DNA of 64,000 nt from Candidatus Desulfobia pelagia (GCA_014382295.1 JACNJZ010000093.1:570-64569), one strand, 5' to 3'. Positions 18,242-44,221 are shown, counted from the first letter of the stretch. Made by a program: numbers and translations. The notes: generated from the letters alone by a model not told the origin.

Positions 18242-18250
18242 GAGAACGCA

Positions 18251-18949: not shown

Positions 18950-18967
18950 GAACGGGGAGGGGGAATG

Positions 18968-19002: not shown

Positions 19003-19042
19003 AAGGAAACCATGAATTCAGTTGTTTCTGGGGAAGAGAGGA

Positions 19043-19480: not shown

Positions 19481-19507
19481 TATTTTCTCCTAAGATTTAG
19501 ATGGGTT

Positions 19508-19544
19508 GAAAGTTTCAAGTTAGCGGCTGTTACTTATTCATTTT
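19508..19544. repeat. AAGTTTYAAGTT / GCGGMTGTKACTWATTCATTTT family, short copy
   Basis: GAAAGTTTCAAGTTAGCGGCTGTTACTTATTCATTTT aligns with 4895-4954 and 27037-27087. It lies 28 nt upstream of the lipoprotein gene start (- strand). Confidence 0.55.
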
Positions 19545-19736
19545 CACGGTCAGTTAATGTGTTCGGAAATGTGAAACATAGTGTACTTTGAAGTTTTTTC
19601 CTCCAACTATCTTATGGGTCAGGAATTTTCAAGGGAATAGGGTAATATGTTTTAGTCAAACAATGTGTTGTCAGCTATACACCATGAGAACGTCGGGAAG
19701 CGTATGCGTATACTTGAAAAAGAGATTAGGCAGTAA

Positions 19737-20705: not shown

Positions 20706-20710
20706 ATTGC

Positions 20711-22675: not shown

Positions 22676-22715
22676 CTTTTATCCGATGCTCTCTGGGACT
22701 TCTTTTCATGGCCGT

Positions 22716-23540
22716 TTATTTGACGGGAACCGGAAAGGAACCAGCTTTGATAATGATATTGACGGCGTCGCTTTTTGAGAGGAAATCAATGAACTGCATG
22801 GCCTGTGCAGAAATATTTTCTTTCCAGACAAGACCAAGCGGGGTTACAAGAGGATAATCTCCATTCGATACGGAAACCTGGTCCGGGTTTATGGCGTTAA
22901 TTTGAAAAATGTGAACATTTTCTCTGCCAACGAGAGCGGAAAGAGGAGAATACCCTATTGTATGGTCATGACCAAGAACGGTTTCAATTGCTTCAGGGGT
23001 TGTATAAAGAACTTCGCCTGTCTTGTTTTTTATTTCCTTAAAACCGGCGAGGGTTTTTTCTATGGCGCTTCTTGAGGAGTCACCGCATTCCCGATCAGCA
23101 ACATAAATATGACCGTTTAGGTCCGCTATATCCTGCCAGAGAATGGTTGTGCCATTATAAATGTTTACTATCTGCTCTGAGGAGAGAGAGGGAATGCTTT
23201 TCAGGGAATTGTTTGCAAAAAAGACTACTGGCGACCTGGCAAAAAAAAGAGATGAAAGACCGTATTTTTTTTCCTTTTCTTTCAGAGGGCGGGCAATCCT
23301 CCCCATGTCGCATTTCCCCCTGGCAGTGGCTTTTATGCCGCCGCTGCTGCCGATGGAGTCCGGGACCTCTATAGTGATATCAGGATTCTGTTTTTCGAAT
23401 TCTGAAGCCAGAAGACGAAGCAGTTCCTGGCTGTCTCCTGTGCCGCAGATGGTTATTTTCTCTGCCGCAGCATAACAGGGCGCATGATACACTATTCCGA
23501 TACTGATAAGCAGCAGAAGGAGTTTTCTGGTCATAGACAT
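22716..23540 (-). CDS. Periplasmic PstS-family (PBP type 2) substrate-binding protein
   Basis: 274 aa. Signal peptide, then CGTGDS...SIGSSGGIKA typical of phosphate-binding-like proteins. It ends 40 nt upstream of the sensor cyclase. Confidence 0.7.
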   Translation of the reverse strand: MSMTRKLLLLLISIGIVYHAPCYAAAEKITICGTGDSQELLRLLASEFEKQNPDITIEVPDSIGSSGGIKATARGKCDMGRIARPLKEKEKKYGLSSLFFARSPVVFFANNSLKSIPSLSSEQIVNIYNGTTILWQDIADLNGHIYVADRECGDSSRSAIEKTLAGFKEIKNKTGEVLYTTPEAIETVLGHDHTIGYSPLSALVGRENVHIFQINAINPDQVSVSNGDYPLVTPLGLVWKENISAQAMQFIDFLSKSDAVNIIIKAGSFPVPVK

Positions 23541-23668
23541 TTTTTTGTTAAAGAAGGAGTTCCCTTCGGGGAAATCAAAGCATTGTCTATTTATTGTAGT
23601 AGAACAGCTTTCCCGATGTCAAAGAATTTACGAAAAAACAGGATAAGGATTTTTGAGATGACGTCCGT

Positions 23669-25342
23669 TTATTGGTCGAGGGAGGGAGAGAAATGGGCGG
23701 ATCTGTTTTTACCGCTGCCTTTTGCTCTGTACATGGCAGTGTCAGCATATCTCATCAGGGTCTGTTCATCTGTGGCATCATCCGGACAGAATGTGACGCC
23801 GATACTTGCTGTGATATGGACTTCATTGTCCCTGCCTACAATAAAAGGGCGGGCAAGGGACTGGAGGAGCTGCCTGATAACAGGCTCGGCATCGGACTGC
23901 TGGGTTATGTTGGTGAGGATAACGGTGAATTCATCTCCTCCAAGCCGGGCAATGGTATCTGTTTGCCGCAGACAGTAGTTGAGGCGCTGGGCAACTTCAA
24001 CCAGAAGATCGTCACCTGCCTGATGACCCAGCGAGTCATTGACGTTTTTAAAGTTGTCAAGGTCAATAAACATCAGGCAGAGGAGTTTGCCGGTACGGGT
24101 GCTCTGGAAGATAGCCTGGGAAAGACGTTCCATGAACAGGGCACGATTGGGAAGACCCGTTAATACGTCAAAATTGGCCAGTTTCCAGATTTGTTTTTCT
24201 GATTCTTTTCGTTCGGTAATATCCCTGGCTGTTGAGTTGACGGCTACAATGCTGTTGTTTTCATCATCATAGTGGTGATTCATGGTCCATAGCATGTCAT
24301 GGGTCTCGCCAATGGCATTGAGTATACGGTTCTCCAGGGTGATCCGTTCTCTTTTACCCTGAACAATGTCATTGAATAGTTCTTCAGTGCTCTGACGGTC
24401 CTCGGGATGAATGAAATCAAAAAGAGAGCGGCCCAGGCATTTTTTCGGTTCAAGGCCAAAGAAGGGGTGGGCCATGTGATTGACAAAGGTGAATTTACCC
24501 CTGGTGTCTACCTGGCAGACAAGGTTGTCTGTGCCCTCAATAAACTGACGATACTGGGCCTCATTCTCTCGCAGTGTTTTTTCTGCAAGCCAGCGTCTGG
24601 ATATATCTTTTATTATGCCGACAGCATGCCATTCACTGTCTATTCGCACGGAAGACAGGGAGAGCTCAATAGGGAACTCTTTTCCCTTTTTGTTCAAGGC
24701 AAAGAGTTCAGTTGTCTTGTCTATAACCGGGCCGGTGCCTGTCAGTGAAAAAGTGTGGAAATGTTCGCTGTAGGCCTTCATATATGTTTCAGGGACAAGG
24801 CGTTTATGGATGTCTTTCCCCAGTATTTCCTGTTCCGTATAGCCAAAGATTCTCTCGGCGGCTTTGTTCCAGAAAGTGGCTTCCCCACTGCTGTTGACCA
24901 TGATGATCGCATCATTTGCAGTTTGGGTGATGGCCCTCAGTTTTGCTTCGTTTTCCTTTATTCTGGCAATGAGATCTTTTTTTTCAAATTCACGCTCCAG
25001 CCGGATAAGAATATCTTCCGTGGAGCAGGGCTTGTTGAGAAAGTCATCAGCTCCGCTGCGCAGCGCCGATATGGCAGAATTTACGTTGGCAAAACCGGTT
25101 AGAATGATAACAACGGTTTCGGGAGCCTCTTCCTTGACTTTTTTAAGGACGTCGATTCCATCCATGCCTGCCATCATCAGATCGGTAAGCACAGCATCAT
25201 GGTGATCGACTTTGAACTTTTTCAGCCCTTCCTTGCCGTTTTCGGCAAGAGAGACTGTAAAACCGACGGCGCTCAGGTCGGTTTTCAGGCTGTGGCGAAT
25301 AAGTTCTTCGTCGTCAATGATGAGGATCTTTTTGTTGCTCAT
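23669..25342 (-). CDS. Response regulator diguanylate cyclase (REC + 2 PAS + GGDEF)
   Basis: 557 aa. MSNKKILIIDDEELI, phospho-acceptor context AVLTDLMMAGMDG, and RLGGDEFTVIL. Its start codon overlaps the ettA stop (ATGA). Confidence 0.9.
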   Translation of the reverse strand: MSNKKILIIDDEELIRHSLKTDLSAVGFTVSLAENGKEGLKKFKVDHHDAVLTDLMMAGMDGIDVLKKVKEEAPETVVIILTGFANVNSAISALRSGADDFLNKPCSTEDILIRLEREFEKKDLIARIKENEAKLRAITQTANDAIIMVNSSGEATFWNKAAERIFGYTEQEILGKDIHKRLVPETYMKAYSEHFHTFSLTGTGPVIDKTTELFALNKKGKEFPIELSLSSVRIDSEWHAVGIIKDISRRWLAEKTLRENEAQYRQFIEGTDNLVCQVDTRGKFTFVNHMAHPFFGLEPKKCLGRSLFDFIHPEDRQSTEELFNDIVQGKRERITLENRILNAIGETHDMLWTMNHHYDDENNSIVAVNSTARDITERKESEKQIWKLANFDVLTGLPNRALFMERLSQAIFQSTRTGKLLCLMFIDLDNFKNVNDSLGHQAGDDLLVEVAQRLNYCLRQTDTIARLGGDEFTVILTNITQQSDAEPVIRQLLQSLARPFIVGRDNEVHITASIGVTFCPDDATDEQTLMRYADTAMYRAKGSGKNRSAHFSPSLDQ

Positions 25343-27024
25343 GCCCGGGTTAACTGCCTGTATTTGATGCGATGGGGCTGATCTGCTTCGCTTCCCAGCC
25401 GTTTTTTGCGGTCGGCTTCGTATTCGGAGTAATTGCCGTCAAAGAAAAGGACCTTGCTGTCTCCCTCAAAGGCAAGAATATGGGTGGCAATGCGATCCAG
25501 AAACCAGCGGTCATGGCTTATAACAACGGCACAGCCGCCAAAATTCTCAAGTGCCTCTTCAAGGGCTCTCAGGGTGTTCACATCCAGGTCGTTTGTCGGC
25601 TCATCAAGCAGGATGACGTTGGCTCCATCCTTCAGCATCCGTGCCAGGTGCACCCTGTTTCTCTGTCCCCCTGACAGCAGCCCGACTTTTTTCTGCTGGT
25701 CCTGTCCTGAGAAATTGAATCGTCCGACATAGGCACGGGAATTGACTTCTTTTGTGCCAAGGGTGATGGTGTCTCTGCCGTCAGAAATAACTTCCCAGAT
25801 CGTTTTGTCCGGATCTAGGGCATCCCGGCTCTGGTCAACATAGGCAAGCTTTACTGTGTCGCCGAGGCGAATGGCGCCGGAATCAGGAGTGTCCTCGCCA
25901 GTTATCATTCGGAACAGTGTTGTCTTTCCTGCACCGTTGGGGCCGATAACTCCGACAATACCACCGGGAGGCAGGCTGAAAGACATGTCTTCAACCAGGA
26001 GTTTGTTCTCGAAAGCTTTATTGACATGTTCAGCCTCTATAACCACCTTGCCAAGTCTGGGTCCTGGTGGAATATAGATTTCCAGCTCGCGGCCTTTATT
26101 TTCATTTTCCTGGCTGAGAAGATCCTCGTAGGATTTGATTCGCGCTTTAGATTTGGCCCTTCTGCCTTTGGGGGCCATATTGATCCATTCAAGCTCACGC
26201 TGCAGAGTTTTCTGGCGTTCACTTTCCTGTTTTTCCTGCTGCTGAAGTCTTTTCTGTTTCTGTTCCAGCCAGGAGGAATAGTTGCCTTTCCAGGGGATTC
26301 CCTTGCCCCGGTCAAGTTCCAGAATCCATCCGGCCACATTGTCGAGGAAATAGCGGTCATGGGTGACAGCGATAATCGTCCCTTCATAGCGCTGGAGGTG
26401 ATGTTCCATCCAGGCAACTGTTTCGGCGTCAAGGTGATTTGTGGGCTCGTCCAGCAGCAGGATGTCCGGTTTTTGAAGCAGGAGGCGACAGAGCGCCACA
26501 CGTCGTTTTTCGCCGCCGGAAAGAATGGTGATCGGAGTATCGCCGGCCGGACAGCGCAAGGCATCCATGGCCATTTCCAGACGTGAATCCAGTTCCCAGG
26601 CATCATTTGCGTCAAGTTTTTCCTGAACCTCTCCCTGTCTGGCAATGAGGGCATCCATTTCATCGTCCGACATGGGTTCGGCAAATTTCATGTTGATCTC
26701 ATTAAATTCGTTTAAAAGATCAACAGTCTCCTGAACCGCTTCTTCGACGATTTCTTTAACAGTTTTGCTGGCATCAAGATCCGGTTCCTGTTCCAGAATA
26801 CCGACTGTCAAGCCTGGAGAAATGGTGGTTTTCCCTTCAAACTCGGTGTCCTTCCCCGCCAGAATGCGGAGCAGGGAGCTTTTTCCGGAACCGTTCAGGC
26901 CCAGTACACCTATTTTGGCGCCATAGAAGTATGACAGGTTGATGTTATTGAGAATGGGCTTTTTGTTATAGTATTTGCTTACTCCGATCATGGAGTAGAT
27001 GATTTTGTTGGCTTCGTCGCTCAT
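25339..27024 (-). CDS. ettA: Energy-dependent translational throttle protein EttA (ABC-F)
   Basis: 561 aa. Two ABC cassettes (GLNGSGKSS and GPNGAGKTT), signature LSGGEKRRVAL, and the C-terminus HRIKYRQLTRA. Confidence 0.92.
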   Translation of the reverse strand: MSDEANKIIYSMIGVSKYYNKKPILNNINLSYFYGAKIGVLGLNGSGKSSLLRILAGKDTEFEGKTTISPGLTVGILEQEPDLDASKTVKEIVEEAVQETVDLLNEFNEINMKFAEPMSDDEMDALIARQGEVQEKLDANDAWELDSRLEMAMDALRCPAGDTPITILSGGEKRRVALCRLLLQKPDILLLDEPTNHLDAETVAWMEHHLQRYEGTIIAVTHDRYFLDNVAGWILELDRGKGIPWKGNYSSWLEQKQKRLQQQEKQESERQKTLQRELEWINMAPKGRRAKSKARIKSYEDLLSQENENKGRELEIYIPPGPRLGKVVIEAEHVNKAFENKLLVEDMSFSLPPGGIVGVIGPNGAGKTTLFRMITGEDTPDSGAIRLGDTVKLAYVDQSRDALDPDKTIWEVISDGRDTITLGTKEVNSRAYVGRFNFSGQDQQKKVGLLSGGQRNRVHLARMLKDGANVILLDEPTNDLDVNTLRALEEALENFGGCAVVISHDRWFLDRIATHILAFEGDSKVLFFDGNYSEYEADRKKRLGSEADQPHRIKYRQLTRA

Positions 27025-27036
27025 GTGTGTGTTTTT

Positions 27037-27087
27037 AAAAGTTTTAAGTTGAAAGTCTTAAGTTTTAAGTTCATGGATGTTACTTAT
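27037..27087. repeat. AAGTTTTAAGTT family, full copy
   Basis: AAAAGTTTTAAGTTGAAAGTCTTAAGTTTTAAGTTCATGGATGTTACTTATG is a close match to 4895-4954. It spans the cyclase stop codon and ends 13 nt upstream of the ettA ATG. Confidence 0.6.
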
Positions 27088-28789
27088 GCAGCTCAGACCA
27101 GGATACGGTTCGATTCCGGCCTGATTCTTTGGCAGAATAGAGGGCCTGGTCGGCTCTGTCAATAAGTTCTGCTTTATTATCAGCATCAACGGGATAGGAT
27201 GCAAGGCCAAAAGACATGGTTATTGTAATTTTTTTTCCTTTTGAACTGAAGCTTAATTCCTCTATGGTAGTACGAACCCTCTCAGCCTGTATGCGGCCGC
27301 CTTCCTCGTCGGAAGCTTCAAGGATCAGGGCAAATTCTTCTCCTCCGTACCGGGCTGCCAGATCAACTTGGCGAATGGAAAGTTTGAGTATCTCGGCCAC
27401 TTTTTTCAGGACCTTGTCTCCAAAGGGGTGACCGTAAGAGTCATTTATCTTTTTGAAGTGGTCTATATCGCATAAAATGAGGCAGAGGGAAGATGACTGG
27501 CGACGGGACCGGATTATCATGTTGTCAAGGCCGAGCTGGAAAGTACGGTGGTTGTTAAGTCCCGTAAGACCGTCGGTAAGGGCCATCTGGTATATTTTTT
27601 CATGGGCCTGGGCAAGTTCGATTTTTGCGGCAATCTGCCCGGCGATAAGTTCCATGATATGGCGCTGGTCTCTGCTGAATATGCCTGTTTTCTGTGAGGC
27701 TATGGTGAGTGCCCCTATTGCCTTGTCTCCCTGTTGGCTCAAGGGGACAATGAGCAGAGATTTAAAGCCGGGTATAAGTTTGTTTCTGGAAAATACAGGT
27801 GCCGGATCAGGGTAGGTTTCGGTTGGCGGCATCCAGTGATTGCAGTGAATTGCCTGTCCCACCAGCCCGTCATTGTGCAGGTATTTGCATCCTTCCAGCT
27901 CTTCAGCCTGGTAGCCATCGGCCCTGACTATAGTATGTTCAGTATCTTGGAGGAGGCTGATAGCAACAAAATCGGCATCAACAAGTTCTTTTACACTGTC
28001 AATGGCAATATCAAAGGTCTCTTTGAGCTCCAGAACACTGTTGAGCCTCTTGATTCCTTTATACAGCCGGCTGACGACGTTTGTGTATCGGGCAGCCTGC
28101 AGGAGTTGATTGCCGATGTATATCTCACGGCTTATTTTGCCTGCGGCAAGTCTTATAAATTCCTGTTCATCTTCTGTCCACTCTTTATCTGAAGAGCGGT
28201 CAATTGATAGAATCCAGAAAGGGGTGTTGCTTGTTTTTGTTTTGGTGTGGTCAGGGATCCTGGTGGCCAGGAGGCTGCCAATGCCTTTGTTGGAGGTATA
28301 GTAGGGGATATTGGCAACCTGTTGAGAGACAGGACACACCTTGACATCTTTGTGCCCCTGGAACAGCACACTGAAAATGCCGATTCCCCGGGAAGCGCAA
28401 TCGTCAAGAATGTCTTTTTTTTCTGTGGAAATGGTGTGCAGGTATACCTTTTTCACAGCGGGATCTGCTTTAAGCAGGGCTGCCGAGGTAAGACTCAGGG
28501 CCTGGCAGATTATCTGCAGCAGGAGGGTACAGGACGAATCTATGTCTTCCTGGAAGGAATTTTTGTTTGATGAATAGGTGTCTATATCAGAAAGGATAGA
28601 ATCAGCTAATGGTTCCCGGATGGTTTTTTGTGTTGTAACGGGCTTGCTTTTCGGGAGCTTTTCTGTCCGGGTGGAAAGAGATCTGTGGCTGACTCTTTTT
28701 TTTGTAAAAGATCGTATAAGAAACCAGGATATGCCGGCCACGAGGGTAACAATTATAATACTCAGAAATGTCAGGTTTACTGATGTCAT
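27080..28789 (-). CDS. Membrane-anchored GAF-domain diguanylate cyclase
   Basis: 569 aa. N-terminal TM, two GAF-like regions, and a GGDEF domain with RYGGEEFALIL. Confidence 0.85.
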   Translation of the reverse strand: MTSVNLTFLSIIIVTLVAGISWFLIRSFTKKRVSHRSLSTRTEKLPKSKPVTTQKTIREPLADSILSDIDTYSSNKNSFQEDIDSSCTLLLQIICQALSLTSAALLKADPAVKKVYLHTISTEKKDILDDCASRGIGIFSVLFQGHKDVKVCPVSQQVANIPYYTSNKGIGSLLATRIPDHTKTKTSNTPFWILSIDRSSDKEWTEDEQEFIRLAAGKISREIYIGNQLLQAARYTNVVSRLYKGIKRLNSVLELKETFDIAIDSVKELVDADFVAISLLQDTEHTIVRADGYQAEELEGCKYLHNDGLVGQAIHCNHWMPPTETYPDPAPVFSRNKLIPGFKSLLIVPLSQQGDKAIGALTIASQKTGIFSRDQRHIMELIAGQIAAKIELAQAHEKIYQMALTDGLTGLNNHRTFQLGLDNMIIRSRRQSSSLCLILCDIDHFKKINDSYGHPFGDKVLKKVAEILKLSIRQVDLAARYGGEEFALILEASDEEGGRIQAERVRTTIEELSFSSKGKKITITMSFGLASYPVDADNKAELIDRADQALYSAKESGRNRTVSWSELHK

Positions 28790-28871: not shown

Positions 28872-28898
28872 TTGACTTATTGATAGGAACATTATATG
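28872..28898 (+). promoter_or_regulatory. Possible sigma-70 promoter for the selenopeptide gene
   Basis: TTGACT (28872-28877) followed by TATATG (28893-28898) at 15-nt spacing. The spacing and -10 quality are suboptimal. Confidence 0.25.
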
Positions 28899-28982
28899 GA
28901 TAGGAAATGGTTTTTTGTGGTCTGGGGAGGCATCTGCCCGGGAGCGTTTCTCCAGAGATGAAAATGACTAAGGAGGTATTTG

Positions 28983-29318
28983 ATGAATACAAAAGAGCTG
29001 AAAAAAATGCTGGCCAGTGTGGGTATTGCTGGCTTGCTTACAGGGTTGCCGCTCACCAGTGGAACTGCCATAGGCGGCAGTGGCTGAGGAGCTAAAGATG
29101 ACAGCGCCGTGAGCGCTGAAAAAGCAGAAAAACACACCGGCGGCAGTGGTTGAGGCGCCAAGAAAGAAGGTGCCGTGAGCACCGATGAAGAAGAGCACGA
29201 AGAAGAAAAAGAAGCCGGCGGTAGTGGCTGAGGCGCTAAAAAAGAAGGTGCCGTGAGCACCGACGACAAAGATAAAGAGGAAGAGCCTGGCTCAAGCGGC
29301 TGAGGCGGAAACAAGTAA
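28983..29318 (+). CDS. Candidate multi-core selenocysteine RiPP precursor (SbtA-like), 111 codons with four in-frame UGA (Sec) codons
   Basis: AAGGAGG at 28970-28976, ATG at 28983 and TAA at 29316-29318. In-frame TGAs at 29085, 29151, 29229 and 29301 each sit in a G-(G/S)-S-G-[TGA]-G-(A/G) context. Each is followed at +15 nt by a hairpin. The N-terminus is hydrophobic and leader-like. It is on the same strand as a radical SAM/SPASM gene, 51 nt upstream of it. Confidence 0.6.
29103..29117 (+). promoter_or_regulatory. SECIS-like hairpin 1
   Basis: AGCGC-CGTGA-GCGCT starts 15 nt after TGA 29085-29087. The 5-nt loop has G at position 2. Confidence 0.55.
29169..29183 (+). promoter_or_regulatory. 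SECIS-like hairpin 2
   Basis: GGTGC-CGTGA-GCACC starts 15 nt after TGA 29151-29153. The stem differs from hairpin 1 by two compensatory base-pair changes. Confidence 0.55.
29247..29261 (+). promoter_or_regulatory. SECIS-like hairpin 3
   Basis: GGTGC-CGTGA-GCACC starts 15 nt after TGA 29229-29231. Confidence 0.55.
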
Positions 29319-29335
29319 CAGTGCAGTTTGCACTG
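29319..29335 (+). promoter_or_regulatory. SECIS-like hairpin 4 (outside the coding frame; could also act as an attenuator)
   Basis: CAGTGC-AGTTT-GCACTG starts 15 nt after TGA 29301-29303 and immediately after the TAA stop. The sequence is unrelated to hairpins 1-3, but the offset is the same and the loop also contains GU. Confidence 0.5.
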
Positions 29336-29369: not shown

Positions 29370-30968
29370 ATGACTTCACACTGGCCCTGTCAACCGGAAG
29401 AAATTTTTGCAGCGACTCATTGCTATATCGATCCCGGCTGCTGGGCCAGAATTTTTTCATCCGCTGAAGACCTTCCCTCTCCGGAGCAGTTTCCGGAAAT
29501 TCTCAGAAGACACTGTGCACAAGTAAACCTTCCTTCATTTCTGCCGGATCTCTCCCGGTTGGAGTTACTCCTCTTTCAGGCATCGCAGAGCACAGAGAAG
29601 ATTCCTGACAGCGTTGAAAAACTCTGTGTTAATCCCTCGTTGCATCTGCTTCGGCTTTCCTGGTCAAATCTCCTGAGGATTGTAAAGGAGCGCCCTGGCA
29701 ACCCGGAAAAGTTTCTCAGGCAGGAGCCTGAATTTATCGTTATCTGGCGTGATAAGGTAAAAAACGTTATCCGGAAAAAAACAGCGTCAGACACAGATAT
29801 CCTTGCTTTGAAAGTTATACTCGAAGAACTGTCAGTCGAGGATGTGGCCGCTGAAGGCGGAGTCGCTGTTGGCGTTATTGACCGTGCGGTTGGCCGGGCA
29901 GTGAGGCAGGGCATATTGCTTCGACCTTCCTCATTGCTACAAAGGGATGCGGATTTCCCCAGGGGTGAAAATATTGATGAGCGTTTTTTCTCATCATCTG
30001 TTTTTACGCTGCAGTGGCATATTACCCAGGCCTGTGATCTTCATTGTCGTCACTGTTATGACCGGAGCAGCAGGACAGCCCTTTCCCTTGAGAAAGGGTT
30101 GGCTCTTCTCGATGATTTCCGGTCATTCTGTCTGGAAAGAAATGTCCGGGGGCAGATTTCCTTTACCGGAGGAAACCCCCTCCTGCATCCTCATTTCTTA
30201 GAATTTTACCAGGCGGCGGCAGATCGCAATCTCATGACGGCGATTCTGGGAAATCCCTGTTCGCGAGAAAAATTAGAGGAAATCTGTGCCATACAGCATC
30301 CTGTTTTTTATCAGGTGAGCTTGGAGGGACTTGCTCCCCACAATGATTATATCAGGGGAGAGGGCCATTTTGAGCGAATCATCTCTTTCCTGGAAGAGCT
30401 CAAGAAGCTTAAAATATACTCCATGGTGATGCTGACCCTGACCCGTGCCAATATGGATCAGGTCTTTGCATTGGCCGACTATCTCCGCGACAAGGTCGAT
30501 CTTTTTACTTATAATCGGCTGGCCATGGTGGGAGAGGGCGCACAGCTTCTTTCTGTCCAGCAGGATGAATATAAGGTTTTTCTGAAAGAATATCTCAAGG
30601 AAGCTTCAGAAAATCCTGTGATCAGTTTGAAAGATAACCTTTTGAACCTGACCCGTTTTGAACAGGGAAAGGCGTTATTCGGAGGATGTGCCGGACATGG
30701 ATGCGGCGCGGCTTTTAATTTTATTGCCGCACTCCCCGATGGTGAAGTACATGCCTGCCGTAAACTTCCTTCCCAGATCGGCAATTTTTTTGAGCATTCA
30801 ATCGCCGCAATATATGACGGCGAGGAGGCGAGGAAATACCGGCATGGCGCCTCATCCTGTCGATCCTGTTCAATCCGCCCTGTCTGTGGAGGATGCCCGG
30901 CAGTCGTCTATGGTTTTGGCCTGGACGTATTCACCGACCGGGATCCATATTGTTACCTGAAGAGTTGA
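29370..30968 (+). CDS. sbtM: Radical SAM/SPASM peptide maturase, selenobiotic (SbtM-like) family candidate, with an N-terminal extension of about 200 aa
   Basis: 532 aa. CDLHCRHC (CX3CX2C) at 30033-30056, FTGGNPLL, and a C-terminal auxiliary-cluster motif CRSCSIRPVCGGC at 30858-30896 plus CAGHGCGAAF...HACRKL. It is immediately downstream of the UGA-containing peptide gene. The radical SAM/SPASM call is firm. The SbtM family assignment rests on context. Confidence 0.8.
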   Translation: MTSHWPCQPEEIFAATHCYIDPGCWARIFSSAEDLPSPEQFPEILRRHCAQVNLPSFLPDLSRLELLLFQASQSTEKIPDSVEKLCVNPSLHLLRLSWSNLLRIVKERPGNPEKFLRQEPEFIVIWRDKVKNVIRKKTASDTDILALKVILEELSVEDVAAEGGVAVGVIDRAVGRAVRQGILLRPSSLLQRDADFPRGENIDERFFSSSVFTLQWHITQACDLHCRHCYDRSSRTALSLEKGLALLDDFRSFCLERNVRGQISFTGGNPLLHPHFLEFYQAAADRNLMTAILGNPCSREKLEEICAIQHPVFYQVSLEGLAPHNDYIRGEGHFERIISFLEELKKLKIYSMVMLTLTRANMDQVFALADYLRDKVDLFTYNRLAMVGEGAQLLSVQQDEYKVFLKEYLKEASENPVISLKDNLLNLTRFEQGKALFGGCAGHGCGAAFNFIAALPDGEVHACRKLPSQIGNFFEHSIAAIYDGEEARKYRHGASSCRSCSIRPVCGGCPAVVYGFGLDVFTDRDPYCYLKS

Positions 30969-31042
30969 TGTGAATATCTACCACTCCAAAGTATAAACAT
31001 CGCGAAAAATACGAGGGTCACTAAGAAAGCCCTGTATTTAAT

Positions 31043-31070
31043 ATCTTCGTGCACTTCGTGTTCTTCGTGG
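31043..31070. repeat. Three tandem CTTCGTG-containing 9-nt words forming the right arm of an imperfect long hairpin
   Basis: atCTTCGTGcaCTTCGTGttCTTCGTGg. The left arm (about 30998-31016, CGCGAAAAATACGAGGG) pairs with it using G-U wobbles on the + strand RNA only. It lies 3' of the maturase gene. Confidence 0.45.
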
Positions 31071-31130
31071 TAAAATCTCTTTTCTCAAAGAGTTATTTCC
31101 TGAAAGTTCATCCCGGGATTTTTTCTTGTC

Positions 31131-32090
31131 ATGAAAATAGGTATCATAGGCGCAGGGAAACATGGTTCCCGGTATGCCCGTCATATTATAGAGGATTTTC
31201 CTGAACTGGAACTGGCTGCTATTTCCAGGAGGTCTCCGCAAGGTATCGAGCAAGCCGGGAAGTGGAATTGCCGTTATTTTTCGGATTGGCGGGATCTGGT
31301 TGCTGCGAAGGCAGTTGATGCGATTATATCTGTTGTGCCGCCTACTCTGAATCTTGATATTGCCAGGGCATGCGCCTTTGCAGAGAAGGCCCTTCTCCTC
31401 GAGAAGCCCCTTGCCGTGGAGAGAGATGCCGGTGAAGAAATTGTCGCACTGTTTCAAGAGTCCCGGGTTCCCCTCACGGTCGCCCAGACATTGCGATATA
31501 ACAGTGTGATAAAGGGGCTGAAGGAAAATATTCATCGCCCGGGGAAATTATACAGCTTTTCCGCCAGTCACAGATTGGAGCCTTCAACCTTGAAATGGCT
31601 CGAAGACCCCGAGAAGGCAGGGGCAGGAGTCATTCTCCATACCGCAGTCCATATGTTTGATGCTCTTCGTTATATTACAGGGTCTGATATTGTACGAGTA
31701 AGAGCAAGCCGTTTTCAAATCCATAATTCTCATCTTGAAGATCTTTTTACAGCCCAGGTCGAGATGGAGAATGGTCTGATTGGAACGGTGGATTCAAGCA
31801 AGGTGGGAAAGGCGCGAACCGGCCGTTATGAATTTGTTGGTGCCCAGGGCGAACTTCATGCCGATCAGATACACGGGCGCCTGGAGTTTATCCACCATGG
31901 AGACATAGAGTCATTGGAACATGAAGGACTTGGTGGTACTATTGTTCCTCTTCTGGAGGATTGGATAGCTTATATTAAGCATGGAAGCCCTAATCCCGTT
32001 CCGGGAGTTGAAGGTCTGGCTGCGCTGCGGGCCTGCTCGGCATGCCTTGAGTCGGCTCGGAAAGATGACTGGGTGGATATTCACCCATAG
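31131..32090 (+). CDS. Gfo/Idh/MocA family NAD(P)-dependent oxidoreductase
   Basis: 319 aa. Rossmann N-terminus MKIGIIGAGKHGSRYARH and the EKPLA motif (LLLEKPLAVE). Confidence 0.8.
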   Translation: MKIGIIGAGKHGSRYARHIIEDFPELELAAISRRSPQGIEQAGKWNCRYFSDWRDLVAAKAVDAIISVVPPTLNLDIARACAFAEKALLLEKPLAVERDAGEEIVALFQESRVPLTVAQTLRYNSVIKGLKENIHRPGKLYSFSASHRLEPSTLKWLEDPEKAGAGVILHTAVHMFDALRYITGSDIVRVRASRFQIHNSHLEDLFTAQVEMENGLIGTVDSSKVGKARTGRYEFVGAQGELHADQIHGRLEFIHHGDIESLEHEGLGGTIVPLLEDWIAYIKHGSPNPVPGVEGLAALRACSACLESARKDDWVDIHP

Positions 32091-32175: not shown

Positions 32176-33288
32176 ATGTATATGAATACAACAGAAATGA
32201 ACGAATCAAAAAATCAAGCACGTGTCCCGGTTCTGGCCGAAGAACTCGTTGAACAGGCACAAGCTGCGGCATTGAAGCAGACCGCTGACTATGCTCCGGG
32301 AGAACGTGAAGAACTCATTGCCCGGATAAAGTCACTGCTGTTGAAACAGGATGCAGTGCTTGTCGCCCATTATTATACGTCACCAGAGCTGCAGCAGCTT
32401 GCTGAAGAAACCGGCGGTTTCGTTGCCGATTCTCTGGAAATGGCCCGTTTTGGGAATGAGCATCCTGCCACCACCCTGATTGTTGCCGGTGTACGTTTTA
32501 TGGGCGAGACGGCTAAAATTCTGAACCCTGAAAAACGGGTTCTGATGCCGGACCCTGCGGCAACCTGTTCCCTTGACCTTGAATGTCCTGTGGATGCATT
32601 CTCGCAGTTCTGTGATGAGCATCCTGATCATACCGTTGTTGTGTATGCAAACACCAGCGCCGAGGTTAAGGCTCGGGCTGACTGGGTGGTTACTTCCGGG
32701 ATAGCCCTGCCGATTGTTGAGTATCTTGCCGGGCAGAAACAAAGAGTTCTCTGGGCACCGGACAAACATCTTGGTTCTTACGTACAAAAAAGTACAGGGG
32801 TGGAAATGCTCATCTGGCAGGGGAGCTGTGTTATTCACGAGAGGTTTACTGCAGACGGTATTAAGAATCTCAAATTGAAATATCCTGGAGCGGCAGTATT
32901 GGTCCATCCGGAATCCCCTGCTGAAGTGATTGAGGTTGCAGATGTAGTTGGTTCGACGACAGCCCTTATCAATGCAAGTAAGACCATGGATGTACAAGAA
33001 TTTATTGTCGCAACCGAGCCGGGTATTTTTTACAAAATGAAGCAGGCCTCTCCTGGGAAAATATTCCTTGAGGCACCGACAGGAGGGATAAGCGCGACCT
33101 GTGAGAGCTGTATGCGATGCCCCTGGATGGCTATGAACGGCCTGCGGAACCTGGCCGAAGTTTTGGAAAATGTGAACAACGAAATCTTTGTTGAGGAGGA
33201 TATTCGCCGGAAGGCATTAATTCCCCTGCAAAGAATGATGGATTTTGCCAAGAAGAGACCTTCCCTGAAAGTAAAGGGCAACGCCTGA
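32176..33288 (+). CDS. nadA: Quinolinate synthase
   Basis: 370 aa. [43 protein letters not shown], and Cys ligands including [10 protein letters not shown]. The exact start is uncertain (32176 or 32182). Confidence 0.9.
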
Positions 33289-33311
33289 TATAAAGGAATT
33301 CCTTAATAGTA

Positions 33312-34199
33312 ATGCAGACTCATTATCTTAAATATTTTGTCGGATTATCCCTGGCAGCAGTTCTTGTTCTGCCGTCATACCTTTATGTGTCTGTGTCTCC
33401 TCAATTCAAGGCTCTTATCATTGAGAATATGGAAAGGGAGGCTTCGCGGGTTTCAACGCATCTTGTCTCAATGTATTCGCTGAAGGGGAAAAAGGAAATT
33501 AATCGGGATAGTTGGGAAATGCTGGCAAAATATGACAAGGAAATCAGGGAAGAATTTCAGATTGAGAAAATTAAGCTCTTTCTTGCCAGTGGAGAGATTG
33601 TTTTTTCTTCGAACCAGAAGGATATTGGAATAATTAATCAGAAAAGCTACTTCAGGGATGTTGTCGCCAAAGGACAGAAATATACCAAGGTCGTAAAAAA
33701 AGATCATAAAACTGCGGAAGACAGGATTGTGCAGGTTGATGTCCTTGAAATATATGTACCAATACTTCAGGGTAATGAATTTGTTGGGGCTTTTGAGATT
33801 TATTACGATATTACAGAGGCGAATGTCCGGCTTGATTCCTTGCTGATGCAGGTATATTTTGTTCTCCTCTGTGTCTCCGGAACGTTACTTCTTGCTCTGT
33901 TTATTATTTTTGACAGGGCGAGCAAGAGTCTGGCCAAGCGGAAAAAGGCTGATACCGGAAGAGAAAAACTGATAACCGACCTTCAGGAGGCCTTAAAAGA
34001 AATTAAGGCTCTTCAGGGGATCCTTCCCATTTGTTCATTTTGCAAACAGATCAGGGATGATGAGGGGTATTGGCAGCAGGTCGATCATTATATAGGCGAG
34101 CATTCCGATGCCCAGTTTAGTCATTCCATCTGCCCCCAGTGCATGAAAGAAAATTACCCGGATTTCGCTGATCCAGAAGGGGAATCTGAGAAAGAATAA
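33312..34199 (+). CDS. Membrane sensor-like protein with periplasmic domain and C-terminal four-Cys module (no canonical output domain)
   Basis: 295 aa. TM1 is near the N-terminus, followed by an extracytoplasmic region of about 150 aa and TM2 (VYFVLLCVSGTLLLALFIIF). A coiled coil is followed by ILPICSFCKQIRDDEGYWQQVDHYIGEHSDAQFSHSICPQCMKENYPDF. Confidence 0.6.
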   Translation: MQTHYLKYFVGLSLAAVLVLPSYLYVSVSPQFKALIIENMEREASRVSTHLVSMYSLKGKKEINRDSWEMLAKYDKEIREEFQIEKIKLFLASGEIVFSSNQKDIGIINQKSYFRDVVAKGQKYTKVVKKDHKTAEDRIVQVDVLEIYVPILQGNEFVGAFEIYYDITEANVRLDSLLMQVYFVLLCVSGTLLLALFIIFDRASKSLAKRKKADTGREKLITDLQEALKEIKALQGILPICSFCKQIRDDEGYWQQVDHYIGEHSDAQFSHSICPQCMKENYPDFADPEGESEKE

Positions 34200-34214
34200 C
34201 CTTTTTACTTTTTT

Positions 34215-34275
34215 GCCACGGAACCCACTGAAAACACAGAAATGTTTTTTGGGTTTTTCCGTGGTATTCTGTGGC
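34215..34275. repeat. Imperfect long hairpin whose arms are 9-nt tandem words (CCACNGAA)
   Basis: GCCACGGAA-CCCACTGAA-AACACAGAA ... TTTTCCGTGG-TATTCTGTGGC. The outer 9 bp include a G-U wobble valid only for the + strand RNA. It sits between convergent genes. Confidence 0.55.
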
Positions 34276-34278
34276 CGA

Positions 34279-35097
34279 CTAGATCAGTTCACTGCTTCGT
34301 GCCGGAATCCAGCACTGGCGACCATCCTGAAGTTCAATGTGCAGCCATGATCCACGTTTTTCCAGGAGATGAAATTCTGTTCCGCTATGGAGCGGGGCAA
34401 TAAAGCTCGACTGGTATGAACGGCTATCCCCTTTTCTGGCAATGACTTCCCTGTCTGTGATAACTCCGGCCGCCTCTTCCACTCCATAACGGGAAAGGAA
34501 GAGCGATGAGGCAAAAAGAAATGCAATGGCCGCAAAAGGCGCAAGGGTCCAGGCTGAAACTCTCCATGGGGAAAGAAAGATCATCCCGGCAGCAATCCAG
34601 AAGGAAATATAGCTGCCAATAAAGATGGCTGCCCTGATATCCTGGGCAAGATCATAGTGCCAGAAAAACAGAGTTCGCAGCAGGGTCTCCTCTTGTTGTG
34701 GTGCAATGGCATCCTGACGCTTTCCAAGCACATAGTCCAGGTTGTGCCGGAGGTTCGGGTCTCCGGGAATGTGTTTTTCAGCCCTTCGATAGTTGACAAT
34801 GGCCCGGCCAATATCCCCCATACGAAAGTAGGTGTTGCCGATATTGTAGTAGATGTTTCCGCTGGGGACGTCTCTGCTTATTTTCTGGTAACGAAGCAGG
34901 GCTTTTTCGTAGAGTTTTTCGGCCTCCTCCGGGTTGTCATTTTCATTTGCCTGGTGAAACAGGGCTGCGGCCTCCTGCATCAGATCCTGGATCTCCGGAG
35001 TAATGATCGGATGTTCTGCGTGTGCAACAAGGGAGTGGTTGAAAAGGCAGAGCAGAAACAGGAAAAGAAAAGACCTGGCAAGTGTCAACGCTGTCAT
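34279..35097 (-). CDS. BatE-like TPR / SH3b membrane protein
   Basis: 272 aa. Signal peptide, TPR region (NIYYNIGNTYFRMGDIGRAIVNY), TM helices and a C-terminal SH3-like WLHIELQDGRQCWIP. It is the last gene of the Bat operon, and its start overlaps the batD stop. Confidence 0.65.
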   Translation of the reverse strand: MTALTLARSFLFLFLLCLFNHSLVAHAEHPIITPEIQDLMQEAAALFHQANENDNPEEAEKLYEKALLRYQKISRDVPSGNIYYNIGNTYFRMGDIGRAIVNYRRAEKHIPGDPNLRHNLDYVLGKRQDAIAPQQEETLLRTLFFWHYDLAQDIRAAIFIGSYISFWIAAGMIFLSPWRVSAWTLAPFAAIAFLFASSLFLSRYGVEEAAGVITDREVIARKGDSRSYQSSFIAPLHSGTEFHLLEKRGSWLHIELQDGRQCWIPARSSELI

Positions 35098-36935
35098 ATC
35101 TGTCCCTCCAGTCTTGATGCAAGATCGAAAAGACGCTTGGTTACATGGGCTGAATTGGCCGGAGTATCTACCCCTCCTGCGTAACGCATTGTTTCACACT
35201 CTTCCATAATCTTTTTTAATTCATCCTGAAGTGAAGGGTCTGTACAGCCATTATCTAATGCCGTTATAACGTCGGAGAATGTTATTGTCCCGGCAGTTTT
35301 TCCTGTTTTGGCAGCAAGGTAGTTCTGAAGAGCCCTGTTGATCTGTTCTCCTGAAAGAGAAGCTGAGCTCAGTTCTTTTTTTAATAGCGGATAGGCATTG
35401 CGGATTTTTCGTTCAGCGCCATTGCCCTTTCGTCTGCGAACCATAAAGGAAGCACCATAGACTAGAAAAAAGAGACCAGGGGGCAGTATGAGTGAGAGCC
35501 ATAGCATCACGGGAGACTGCTGCTTGATGTAGAGCGCATTACCCTCTATTTCTTCATAATTGTGATTAATTCCCTCAATCACTGCCTGGATTTTTTTCTT
35601 TCCTGTTGCCGCATCAAGGCCTTCGGCATCCAATGCGGTGACGATACGGGTGGTGCTGACCTGCAATGGTATGGGGGGTGTGCGGGCCGTTGTGTACCTT
35701 TTTTCCTCTATATCGAAGTAGGTCAGGGCAATGGGAGGGATCTCGGTGACCCGGCTGTTTTTTACCCGTATTGTCTGGGTGTAGGTTTTCCCCCCATCTG
35801 CAATTTCTCCGGCGGCCATTTCTTCAGGAATTTTAAAAGATTCAGGGTGGAGAAAACGTGACAGGTCAGGCAGTTGAATATGTTTGAGTGAAGATCCTTC
35901 CACGGTAACAGTTAGGGTAATGGGGTCACCTATATTTACCTGGGTGGGAGATGCTTTTGCCTGTATGGCATATGTACCGACCAGACCCGAAAAGAAAGGC
36001 GGCTTGTTCTCGGCGGGCAGGGGGAGGACGGTCAATGTCGGTTGGTTTGACGGGGTTACAAATGTCTGGTAGACCGCCCGTCTTCCGGAACTGAAAAAAT
36101 CTTCAAAGACGTCGTTTCCCATACCGCCGAATGGGCGGTTTGAACGGGACTGCCTGTACCCCGTGAGAGCCTGGCAGGACACTGTGGTTTGCGGGAGTGT
36201 GAAGGACCCTTCCTGCAATGGAACAAGGTGGTGCTGGAAAGTAACGGTGAGAAACTCTTCACCATCCAGTTTTTCTTTTCCCTTTGTTGCAGGTACCGTG
36301 TGTGTACCCACCGGAACCTCCAGTGTGTCTTGATTGTCTGCGGCAAGGGGCGTTGCGTCAAATCCGGGTTCTGAAAGCACCGGCAGGTTGAACTCGAAGT
36401 TTTTGACATTCTTGCCGACATACCAGGTTGTGGTCAATATGACTGGTTCACCAACATAGCATGTCTCCTTGGAGAGTGACATCCGAACCTTGAATTCAGC
36501 GGTCTCCTGGGGTTTCCTGGCATGAATTGTAACAGGGCGGGTCGAGTAATTTCTGCCGTCAACAGTGACATGAATTGCAGGAATGATCAATTCCCCTGAT
36601 TTCTTTGGAGTCAGACTGTAATTGAAAATATAGCCGTGGTGGGTAATCTGCTGCCATGAACCATTTGTATTGCTTACCATGGTGCTGCTGTTGCTCTGGC
36701 CTCCCATGGGCCGCACTGTGAAATCGGTAAGTTGGCTGGTGTCAGGTTCTGCAGGGGAGTCGGCTCCTTCTACCCTGATTTGCATGGTGAAGGACTCACC
36801 GACAAAGACCTCCTGCCTCTCTACTGCTGTTTCCACCTGTATGTCAGCCGCATTAACGGAATGAGGCAGGAGGCAGAGAGAAAAGAGTACCGTTATGAGA
36901 GTAACAATGTTTGCTGTTTGAAAAATGACGCGCAT
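35094..36935 (-). CDS. BatD-like oxygen-tolerance protein
   Basis: 613 aa. Signal peptide, a large beta-rich extracytoplasmic region and one late TM (VMLWLSLILPPGLFFLVYG). Operon position is conserved after BatC. Confidence 0.7.
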   Translation of the reverse strand: MRVIFQTANIVTLITVLFSLCLLPHSVNAADIQVETAVERQEVFVGESFTMQIRVEGADSPAEPDTSQLTDFTVRPMGGQSNSSTMVSNTNGSWQQITHHGYIFNYSLTPKKSGELIIPAIHVTVDGRNYSTRPVTIHARKPQETAEFKVRMSLSKETCYVGEPVILTTTWYVGKNVKNFEFNLPVLSEPGFDATPLAADNQDTLEVPVGTHTVPATKGKEKLDGEEFLTVTFQHHLVPLQEGSFTLPQTTVSCQALTGYRQSRSNRPFGGMGNDVFEDFFSSGRRAVYQTFVTPSNQPTLTVLPLPAENKPPFFSGLVGTYAIQAKASPTQVNIGDPITLTVTVEGSSLKHIQLPDLSRFLHPESFKIPEEMAAGEIADGGKTYTQTIRVKNSRVTEIPPIALTYFDIEEKRYTTARTPPIPLQVSTTRIVTALDAEGLDAATGKKKIQAVIEGINHNYEEIEGNALYIKQQSPVMLWLSLILPPGLFFLVYGASFMVRRRKGNGAERKIRNAYPLLKKELSSASLSGEQINRALQNYLAAKTGKTAGTITFSDVITALDNGCTDPSLQDELKKIMEECETMRYAGGVDTPANSAHVTKRLFDLASRLEGQI

Positions 36936-36944
36936 ATCCTATCC

Positions 36945-38060
36945 TTACCAGTCCTTATCTACCAGGAGGCGATCCTGGCCACGGCGATTTTTTCGCATTT
37001 CCTGTACTTTTTTTTCAGTATTGAGAAGTTCTTCAAGAGCCTGTTCAGAGGAATCCATGGTCATGTTCTCAGTATCGTCAGCAGATTCCTCACTGCTTTC
37101 TTCCTGGGCCATATCCATCTGCTGTTCATCCTGGTTTTGATCTTTATTTTCTTGTTGCCCCTGTTGCGGGGAAGCCTGTTGCTGCTCCTGTTCGTTGTGT
37201 TCTTTCAGGGAATCCCTGGCCTGCTGCAGGAGGTCCGCAGCATTATCCTGTTGCTTTTGTGCCTGTTCGATATCGTTTTGTTTGAGACTTTCTTCAGCTT
37301 TCTTTTGTTCTTTAATTGCCTGCTGCATCTGATCCATTGCCTGGGAGTCCTGTCTATCCCCGGCTCCCTGACTTGTATTCATCTGATCGGCAAGCTCTTC
37401 AGTTTGACGGCGAAGTTGCTCTTGGCTGGCCGCATCCTCATCCTTATTTTCCGTCTCTCCCTGCAGGCTTTTCTCTTTGTTACTGTCAGCCATCTCCTGC
37501 TGTTTTTCCTGGAGGGATTCAAGTTGTTTCTGCATGTTCTGCTGTTGTTCGGCCGCCTGTTTCATCTGTTCCTGTTCAAGCCGTTGCTGTTCTTCAAGCT
37601 TTTTTATTGTACGCCGGCATATCTCAAGGTTTCGACCAGCTTCTTTTATAGAGCTGTCATGTCCCAGAGCCAGCTGGAAAGCTCTGCTGCTCTCCTTAAG
37701 AAGGTCAAGTTTGGCAGAAAGGTGTTCAGCCTGTTCTGCTTTCTGGAACAGGGTATTGCCGATATTGTACCTGGAGGCGGCACTGGAAGCCGGGTCCTCA
37801 ATAGCCGCCGCCGCTTTCTCATACGCAGAAAGAGCGTCGTCATATCTGCCTAGTCTGTACAGGCCGTTACCCCTGTTAAAAAGGGCATGACGGGAAGACT
37901 CATCAGCCGCCGCTGCTTCATCATATTTTTGCAGCGCTTCTTCGTACTGTTCCTTGTCGTAGGCGGTATTTCCTGCATCGAGCAAGTCTCGAACAGAAGC
38001 GGCAAAGGTCAGAGAAGGGATACAGAGAATCAGTCCCGTAAAAAGAATGAGTAGTCGCAT
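36945..38060 (-). CDS. BatC-like TPR protein with long Gln/Glu-rich coiled-coil tail
   Basis: 371 aa. Signal peptide, TPR repeats (YEEALQKYDEAA, RYDDALSAYEKAA) and a low-complexity Q/E/K region of about 180 aa. Confidence 0.65.
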   Translation of the reverse strand: MRLLILFTGLILCIPSLTFAASVRDLLDAGNTAYDKEQYEEALQKYDEAAAADESSRHALFNRGNGLYRLGRYDDALSAYEKAAAAIEDPASSAASRYNIGNTLFQKAEQAEHLSAKLDLLKESSRAFQLALGHDSSIKEAGRNLEICRRTIKKLEEQQRLEQEQMKQAAEQQQNMQKQLESLQEKQQEMADSNKEKSLQGETENKDEDAASQEQLRRQTEELADQMNTSQGAGDRQDSQAMDQMQQAIKEQKKAEESLKQNDIEQAQKQQDNAADLLQQARDSLKEHNEQEQQQASPQQGQQENKDQNQDEQQMDMAQEESSEESADDTENMTMDSSEQALEELLNTEKKVQEMRKNRRGQDRLLVDKDW

Positions 38061-38063
38061 AAT

Positions 38064-41193: not shown

Positions 41194-41203
41194 AGTGTGC
41201 TGA

Positions 41204-44189: not shown

Positions 44190-44221
44190 CGAACATCTTC
44201 TGTTTCCAAAAGAGATACTCT

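Follow-up and report, generated by a model that had tools for sequence, protein, structure and literature searches.

The closest known counterparts of the locus considered here are the SbtA/SbtM pairs, in which a radical S-adenosylmethionine (SAM) maturase with a SPASM domain, SbtM, modifies a precursor peptide, SbtA, encoded immediately upstream. The characterised SbtM is reportedly the enzyme of Geobacter lovleyi, studied by Lewis et al. in 2021. In vitro, reconstituted SbtM converts the Cys or selenocysteine (Sec, U) of a minimal Gly-Cys/Sec peptide into a thio(seleno)oxazole with a mass change of -4 amu, by abstraction of a hydrogen from C-beta and two SAM-dependent oxidations, according to two reports (PMC9204691, PMC11002830). 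The first of them also gives about three [4Fe-4S] clusters per SbtM, and it describes neither the mature product nor its role in biology as known (PMC9204691). Here we describe a 64,000-nucleotide stretch of Candidatus Desulfobia pelagia DNA (GCA_014382295.1 JACNJZ010000093.1:570-64569, called the window below) in which two adjacent genes almost certainly form such a pair, and we compare its SbtM with a second group of maturation systems.

This second group makes RiPPs (peptides of ribosomal origin that are modified after translation) with the help of a multinuclear non-haem iron oxidative enzyme (MNIO) and a PME1 protein. The MNIO-PME1 systems that we compared are those of the bufferins (BufABC), oxazolin (HvfABC), fontiphorin (FonABC) and gonophorin (NgoABC). 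Their substrates (NgoA, HvfA, FonA and the bufferins) begin with signal peptides of the general secretory pathway, carry repeated EGKCG or EGSCGASK motifs and a ...CGSK end and, like the Lys-Cys family, are converted into copper-binding 5-thiooxazoles. Two MNIO partner proteins, NGO1945 and TglI, combine a DUF2063 domain with a domain of the RiPP recognition element (RRE) type (PMC12452194, PMC12710340).

The features of the pair in the window are the following, where SECIS stands for selenocysteine insertion sequence and where related loci, here and below, are numbered L001 onwards.

28970-28976, + strand: Shine-Dalgarno sequence AAGGAGG, read from the sequence, 6 nt 5' of the sbtA ATG
28983-29318, + strand: sbtA, 111 codons, with in-frame TGA codons at 29085, 29151, 29229 and 29301
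29102-29118, + strand: SECIS-like hairpin 1, CAGCGC-CGUGA-GCGCUG, 17 nt past UGA-1
29169-29183, + strand: SECIS-like hairpin 2, GGUGC-CGUGA-GCACC, 18 nt past UGA-2
29247-29261, + strand: SECIS-like hairpin 3, GGUGC-CGUGA-GCACC, 18 nt past UGA-3
29319-29335, + strand: SECIS-like hairpin 4, CAGUGCA-GUU-UGCACUG, between sbtA and sbtM, kept in L001-L003
29370-30968, + strand: sbtM, thio(seleno)oxazole-forming radical SAM/SPASM maturase of 532 aa, matching TIGR04082
29394-29588, + strand: predicted helical subdomain of SbtM (aa 9-73), DUF2063-like, with a LARLE motif; from the AlphaFold2 (AF2) model, a Foldseek match to 3DEE, hhalign and weak PF09836 matches of family members
29643-29909, + strand: predicted winged-helix subdomain of SbtM (aa 92-180), RRE-type and NGO1945_C-like; from the AF2 model (three strands and three helices), Foldseek and hhalign
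30000-30629, + strand: radical SAM core of SbtM (aa 211-420), with CX3CX2C and the SAM-binding motif GGNPLL, the motif residues being invariant
30687-30953, + strand: SPASM domain of SbtM (aa 440-528), with eight invariant Cys and room for two auxiliary [4Fe-4S] clusters

The open reading frame (ORF) of sbtM begins 51 nt past the stop codon of the upstream peptide gene (29316-29318). Its 532-aa product contains CDLHCRHC (30033-30056), the CX3CX2C motif formed by C222, C226 and C229, together with FTGGNPLL, CAGHGCGAAF...HACRKL and CRSCSIRPVCGGC (30858-30896); this ORF, its motifs, the spacers on either side and a hairpin further downstream had been described in a sequence-only reading of the same DNA, and all of them lie where it placed them. 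Pfam recognises Radical_SAM (PF04055) at aa 218-370 and SPASM (PF13186) at aa 445-500. That reading had also assigned the pair to SbtA/SbtM, and the two NCBIfam equivalog models support the assignment: TIGR04082 ("thio(seleno)oxazole modification radical SAM maturase SbtM") scores 718.6 bits against a cutoff of 350, with profile positions 1-516 of 516 aligned to aa 12-529, and TIGR04081, the model of the SbtA precursor, matches the first 25 residues of SbtA with 39.6 bits against a cutoff of 30.5. Comparison with models of radical SAM/SPASM subfamilies, a check that it had proposed, thus identified the 532-aa protein as a full-length SbtM, and, in line with the expected linkage to Sec/Cys peptides, 59 distinct loci of genome and metagenome collections yielded a precursor upstream of sbtM.

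The CX3CX2C motif and eight Cys of the SPASM region (C440, C445, C463, C497, C500, C506, C509 and C528) are invariant in 59 homologues of SbtM. The AF2 model of the full-length protein (pLDDT 89.6, pTM 0.88) finds its nearest solved folds in CteB, SuiB and SkfB, followed by anSME and PqqE (E 1e-15 to 5e-11). The best genome match to the locus is that of a Desulfobia sp., with 75% identity. Since the locus agrees with the family in every respect in which membership could be tested, it represents a further member of the known and biochemically characterised SbtA/SbtM family; the description of this pair as defined only in silico was correct as to its identity and outdated as to its status, as SbtM has been reconstituted in vitro (PMC9204691, PMC11002830). 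As a whole, the locus is in all likelihood a canonical two-gene sbtA-sbtM RiPP module in a Desulfobulbia-like genome. It shares with the family the matches to the full-length models, the order of a ~200-aa module, radical SAM and SPASM, the precursor immediately upstream, Sec in a G-U-G context and the SECIS hairpins, and it differs in the four Sec of its precursor (found in 6 of the 59, the mode being three), in the strongly acidic linkers of its clade and in the lack of a lipobox Cys.

Judged by its membership in the equivalog family, SbtM of the window would form thio(seleno)oxazoles as well. By the chemistry established for the family, 5'-deoxyadenosyl radicals would abstract a hydrogen from the beta-carbon of each Sec in the course of two SAM-dependent oxidations, and the modified Sec would cyclise onto the carbonyl of the preceding Gly, yielding a selenooxazole with the loss of 4 H per site.

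SbtA translates as MNTKELKKMLASVGIAGLLTGLPLTSGTAIGGSG-U-GAK...GGSG-U-GAK...GGSG-U-GAK...GSSG-U-GGNK, with an N-terminus like that of a signal peptide, after which come four G-S-G-U-G cores with charged linkers between them. Among the 59 precursors, three have no Sec, three have one, 15 have two, 32 have three and six have four, which makes 53 with at least two, and their consensus core is S-[GSA]-U-[GS]-[GA]-x-K. The four-Sec layout, with its four in-frame UGA codons, recurs in the closest relatives L001-L003, whose SbtM proteins are 75-77% identical to that of the window, and four Sec is the upper end of the ordinary range of the family. The fate of four cores in one precursor, which had been left open in the sequence-only reading, is thereby largely answered, two to four Sec being the family norm. 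In L018, L025 and L066 the precursors have Cys throughout, at the core positions, and that of L066 carries ~13 such Cys cores.

Each of the four UGA codons would be recoded as Sec by means of the SECIS-like hairpin 17-18 nt downstream of it. Hairpin 1 has the loop of hairpins 2 and 3, from which it is set apart by two compensatory base-pair changes. In 53 sbtA genes, a perfect stem of at least 6 bp beginning 14-18 nt past the UGA was found for 74% of 150 UGA codons, as compared with 11% in shuffled sequences, and the loops of the sbtA hairpins are GU-rich (AGGUA, CGUGA, AGGUG, GUU, GGUC), as expected of bacterial SECIS elements. Hairpin 4 (CAGTGCAGTTTGCACTG followed by a T-rich tail) also scores as intrinsic-terminator-like, and could attenuate read-through into sbtM, thus setting the ratio of precursor to enzyme.

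Several precursors of related loci depart from the common layout. That of L016 (4564-4791) has Arg (SSRSG) where the family core motif has Sec (SSUSG), and that of L015 (2999-3298) has one Sec left. The precursors of the Desulfobulbus-type loci L043, L053 and L073 form a subfamily with two Sec cores near the N-terminus and then a long, probably helical tail, rich in Lys, Asp and Ala, that ends in ...IEGC; L074 has a similar tail with a third Sec core at its end (...SSUGGHKK). In the window, an ORF of 140 aa (28892-29314, - strand) runs antisense to the sbtA repeats, and an antisense gene of 98 aa is also called at a related locus. The ORF in the window very likely arises as an artefact, which gene callers can pick up, from coding sequence that is repetitive and GC-rich.

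The N-terminal ~200 residues of SbtM had been singled out in the sequence-only reading as a large extension that could serve in recognition of the substrate. The region does precede the radical SAM core; it is not peculiar to this gene, since it is common to the more than 3000 SbtM homologues of ~530 aa and lies within the TIGR04082 model, and the next-best family aligns only from aa 211. We modelled aa 1-212 with AF2 from 59 aligned sequences (pLDDT 89.4, pTM 0.82). In a Foldseek search of this model against the Protein Data Bank (PDB), the top match was NGO1945 of Neisseria gonorrhoeae (3DEE; E 3.3e-7, 200 columns, TM 0.57/0.60), the other significant matches were to TglI of the TglHI complex (8HI7 and 8HCI, E ~3e-4), and no significant match was found beyond these three.

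The same relationship was recovered from sequence profiles. The sequences of NgoC, HvfC and FonC were taken from the supplement of PMC12668002, and their database homologues are all annotated with PF09836 and PF22106. When 30 SbtM N-termini were aligned with 20 HvfC/DUF2063 proteins by hhalign, the match took in both subdomains, over 177 columns, with a probability of 94.8% (E 5e-8); its score of 59.6 compares with a maximum of 22.3 among 60 column-shuffled alignments, and a reversed control gave 0.1% probability. An earlier comparison with a three-sequence HvfC/NgoC/FonC alignment, obtained from the supplement by optical character recognition, had been weak (21% probability). Scans of the 30 N-termini as single sequences gave weak matches to PF09836 (DUF2063) in five and to PF22106 (NGO1945_C) in two, and eight matched NF050145, the NCBIfam model of the 'HvfC family RiPP maturation protein', with a best E of 4.8e-4. 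We consider it highly probable that SbtM is a PME1-like recognition module, consisting of a DUF2063-like and an RRE-type part, fused to a radical SAM/SPASM catalyst. This remote homology to MNIO partner proteins fits the earlier guess, and the module would hold the SbtA precursor.

The SbtA/SbtM and MNIO-PME1 systems resemble each other also in their reaction and in their substrates. In both, Cys or Sec is converted to a 5-thio- or 5-selenooxazole with the loss of 4 H, the homologous if remotely related recognition module is present, the precursors have signal-peptide-like N-termini, repeated Gly-flanked Cys/Sec followed by Lys and ...(C/U)G(S/G/N)K ends, and no dedicated exporter is encoded. 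However, the catalyst of the MNIO-PME1 systems is an O2-dependent iron enzyme of the DUF692 type, whereas that of the sbt locus is an O2-independent radical SAM/SPASM enzyme; the recognition protein is separate in the former and fused to the catalyst in SbtM; and the former use Cys where the window has Sec, and a DoxX gene is missing here. PF05114 (DUF692/MNIO) was absent among the 20 ORFs that we scanned on either side of the pair (17069-28789 and 32176-47407), and with a radical SAM/SPASM catalytic domain, and no DUF692 catalyst among these ORFs, the sbt locus is not itself an MNIO-PME1 system. The hosts of sbt loci, Thermodesulfobacteriota and Nitrospirota, are mostly anaerobes.

Among radical SAM enzymes, CteB, SuiB and SkfB are built like SbtM: the recognition domain is N-terminal, the radical SAM barrel comes next, and the SPASM domain holds two auxiliary clusters. 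The enzyme anSME, like SbtM, oxidises the beta-carbon of Cys (PMC9204691). CteB and SuiB differ in having a single PqqD-type RRE of ~100 aa and in forming thioether or C-C crosslinks, whereas SbtM has the two-subdomain PME1-like module and forms a heterocycle. The winged-helix domain (aa 92-180) that SbtM carries ahead of its radical SAM and SPASM domains thus belongs to a larger module, closer to PME1 than to PqqD, and the SbtM sequence scores far below the cutoffs of the CteB, SuiB, SkfB and anSME families. The second-best NCBIfam match was to the radical SAM/SPASM protein of the ACGX system (TIGR04340), with 173.6 bits over aa 211-529; this is below the cutoff of 400, and that model has no counterpart of the N-terminal 200 aa.

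The N-terminus of SbtA may have two functions. Its basic n-region has a net charge of +2, its h-region, MLASVGIAGLL, averages 2.18 on the Kyte-Doolittle scale, and the residues at AIG|G are small; in 35 of the 59 precursors a lipobox-like ...G-C directly follows the hydrophobic stretch. The conservation of this N-terminus (M-D-x-K-x-L-K-K-x-L-A-G...) across phyla is far better than is usual for signal peptides, from which it would follow that the leader doubles as a recognition sequence. According to this model, the N-terminus would act both as a recognition sequence and as a signal peptide of the general secretory type, in most relatives of the lipoprotein type; the chain with its four selenooxazoles would be exported by the general secretory pathway and cut by signal peptidase. 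By analogy with MNIO-made peptides, all four Sec would probably be modified within a single exported chain. Judging from these leader features, we think export by signal peptide rather more probable than its absence. No protease or transporter lies near the pair, as the sequence-only reading had remarked, and this absence is largely answered by the likeness of the leader to secretory and lipoprotein signal peptides: a dedicated transporter or protease would not be needed nearby if general export and signal peptidase suffice.

To look for further companions of sbtM, we clustered every ORF of 100 aa or more in 84 loci. Clade-level synteny only was seen, namely of GAF-GGDEF, ABC-F, TPR and oxidoreductase genes, and in these loci sbtM has no additional companion family, be it a protease, an exporter, DoxX, a metal gene or an immunity gene. 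The oxidoreductase lies downstream of sbtM in the window, separated from it by a spacer that contains a hairpin.

30999-31071 (approximate), + strand: imperfect hairpin in the 162-nt spacer between sbtM and the oxidoreductase gene (30969-31130)
31131-32090, + strand: Gfo/Idh/MocA NAD(P)-dependent oxidoreductase of 319 aa, with Pfam PF01408 (N-terminal) and PF02894 (C-terminal)

This gene is probably a lineage-restricted syntenic neighbour and not a component of the pathway. With the 319-aa protein as tblastn query, homologues of 58-79% identity were found adjoining sbtM in L001, L004, L006, L023 and L038 and ~4 kb away from it in L010 and L024. Among 71 loci with at least 1.5 kb of downstream sequence, the gene is thus near sbtM in eight, the window included, all of them of the Desulfobulbia-like clade. 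L002 and L003 share the four-Sec precursor and the flanking genes with the window, and their SbtM is 75% identical, but in them sbtM is followed directly by nadA. The sequence past the stop codon of sbtM in these two loci matches the sequence past the oxidoreductase gene in L001, and therefore the presence or absence of the gene is clean. The L023 homologue (6518-7469) appears in two overlapping tblastn segments, which suggests a frameshift, due either to a pseudogene or to an assembly error.

The hairpin of the spacer lies outside the core system. It folds only a little better than shuffled sequence does (z = -2.3, with 2 of 200 shuffles doing as well) and holds repeated CTTCGTG/CACGAAG motifs. 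The spacer of L006 (~6640-6720), whose SbtM is 57% identical, has a related hairpin, ..CACGAAG..CTTCGTGCGCTTCGTG.., and the spacers of L001 and L004 measure 11 and 45 nt. We considered the spacer of the window (30969-31130) as a repeat or mobile element and rejected this, as it has no second copy in the window and only short chance matches in related loci.

Other explanations can be given for each part of this system. It may be argued that the TGA codons of sbtA are genuine stops, so that the product is a 34-aa N-terminal peptide only and the downstream repeats are non-coding; gene callers indeed annotate just this 34-aa ORF, and tRNA-Sec and sel genes are lacking in the window. We find this scarcely credible, since the frame, the G-S-G-U-G motif and the final TAA are kept although SbtM identity among the loci concerned is only 50-77%, SECIS-like hairpins stand at a fixed distance past most UGA codons, Cys occupies the equivalent positions in three loci, and the 34-aa product would offer SbtM neither Cys nor Sec to modify. 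The first 200 residues of SbtM, in turn, could be a generic winged-helix or regulatory DNA-binding domain, in which case the likeness to MNIO partners would be a coincidence of fold and recognition would reside in the radical SAM/SPASM core. DUF2063 was first annotated as a putative DNA-binding domain, seven of the 30 SbtM N-termini weakly match sigma-70 region 4, and SbtM is active on a minimal peptide that has no leader. Nevertheless, the match extends beyond a helix-turn-helix to both subdomains in their order, over 177-200 positions, each of the three significant hits in the PDB is an MNIO partner protein, and the shuffled controls score far below the real alignment. In addition, NGO1945 is now viewed as a RiPP partner protein and not as a transcription factor (PMC12452194), and the nearest radical SAM folds, CteB and SuiB, bear N-terminal RRE domains too. 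A generic domain is therefore very unlikely, and a PME1-like recognition module remains our reading of this region.

Doubts of the same kind arise as to the extent of the system and the use of its product. The sequence-only reading had proposed the oxidoreductase as an accessory enzyme; in such a three-gene system it would supply or complete an oxidation, for instance of an oxazoline to the oxazole, or tailor the product. In L001 and L004 the genes are on the same strand with operon-like gaps, and in all, seven loci of the clade besides the window have the homologue adjoining sbtM or within ~4 kb of it. Against this, SbtM alone removes all 4 H in vitro, a four-electron oxidation (PMC9204691), and the co-occurrence that the earlier reading had asked about is confined to eight of 71 loci in a single clade, with clean absence from L002 and L003. 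Moreover, 162 nt and a hairpin separate the genes in the window, no NCBIfam equivalog reaches its cutoff for the oxidoreductase, and GGDEF and nadA genes also stay beside sbtM in the same clade, which points to simple synteny. We thus abandon the accessory enzyme, keeping a small chance of a tailoring role specific to the clade because the gap in L001 is only 11 nt. As for the product, the historical naming of the family, including jgi names, and the entry 'Selenobacteriocin' in a table of PMC13188914 imply a secreted antimicrobial (a 'selenobiotic') rather than a metal-binding peptide of the periplasm or the membrane, and bacteriocins are common among radical SAM/SPASM RiPPs. This we regard as unlikely, although less so than the alternatives above: immunity, ABC-exporter and peptidase genes are absent as companions of sbtM in the 84 loci, the lipobox-like motif of 35 precursors suggests anchoring in the membrane over release, and the Gly/Ser/Lys-rich cores, with acidic linkers in the clade of the window, are like those of MNIO metallophore precursors. 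The characterisers of SbtM call the function unknown (PMC9204691).

The view that we prefer, of a two-gene system with a fused recognition module and an exported, possibly metal-binding product, has its own weak points. The 64-kb window contains no tRNA, hence no tRNA-Sec, and no sel genes, and the decoding of UGA as Sec in this host is deduced from the SECIS hairpins. The N-terminal module is only a distant homologue of the MNIO partners (13% identity in hhalign, TM ~0.6, rmsd 4.7 A), and the structural resemblance is that of a predicted and not of a solved structure. Pfam finds nothing in the N-terminal 213 aa of the window's own protein even at E 10, and the 30-sequence N-terminal profile gave chance-level TPR and sigma matches only when searched against PDB sequences. 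A leaderless minimal peptide is modified by SbtM in vitro (PMC9204691), and the module may therefore be dispensable for catalysis. The clade of the window lacks the lipobox Cys, and the leader, given its conservation, could be a recognition sequence and nothing else. Finally, the idea of metal binding is purely one of analogy, and no metal-related gene was found among the scanned neighbours of the locus.

The wider neighbourhood of the pair consists of GGDEF genes, an ABC-F gene, nadA and a Bat/MoxR operon. A scan of the window with Rfam revealed a c-di-GMP-I riboswitch and nothing besides.

13748-13844, - strand: c-di-GMP-I riboswitch, 42.1 bits in Rfam (gathering threshold 35), ~15 kb upstream of the pair
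20711-22675, - strand: GGDEF diguanylate cyclase gene, upstream of sbtA
23669-25342, - strand: GGDEF diguanylate cyclase gene, upstream of sbtA
27080-28789, - strand: GGDEF diguanylate cyclase gene, upstream of sbtA
34279-43236, - strand: Bat/MoxR-type ('aerotolerance') operon, encoding TPR, BatD, TPR, VWA and BatA-VWA proteins, an unannotated ORF, DUF58 and a MoxR AAA ATPase

The three GGDEF genes stand directly upstream of sbtA. The GAF-GGDEF gene divergent from sbtA is syntenic in 21 related loci, and the TPR and BatD genes of the Bat/MoxR operon are syntenic with sbtM in L002, L003, L006, L023 and L038. Pfam gives no match at E 1e-5 for two ORFs of ~300 aa (33312-34199 and 19737-20705, both on the + strand). 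The former combines a hydrophobic segment at its N-terminus with a CxxC...CPQC region at its C-terminus, and is syntenic downstream of nadA in L002 and L003.

In itself the locus adds one SbtA/SbtM pair, with four Sec, to a known two-gene kind. What reaches beyond it concerns the N-terminal third of every SbtM, a region without annotation, which seems to be the recognition module known from the partners of MNIO enzymes. In the literature that we searched, which left out the primary SbtM paper, no article ties SbtM to DUF2063, PME or HvfC proteins. With this in mind, one may speculate that SbtA/SbtM is the anaerobic, radical SAM counterpart of the O2-dependent MNIO-PME1 metallophore systems. 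According to this speculation, which we put forward at somewhat less than an even chance, an ancestral PME1-type module (DUF2063 and RRE) became fused to a radical SAM/SPASM enzyme that takes the place of the MNIO, and the product would be an exported, periplasmic or lipid-anchored peptide with multiple selenooxazoles that chelates copper or other soft metals. Taken separately, periplasmic binding of copper or another soft metal by the selenooxazole peptide is a similarly tentative suggestion, drawn from the MNIO-made peptides. If true, two unrelated catalysts, one that needs O2 and one that is inactivated by it, would have been taken into service for one and the same metal-binding group, made on exported peptides of a similar kind. 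This reading would explain why genes for a transporter, a protease or immunity are never found beside the pair, and it would give the SbtM family, whose role is stated to be unknown, a function that can be tested, namely the binding of soft metals by selenooxazoles in the periplasm.

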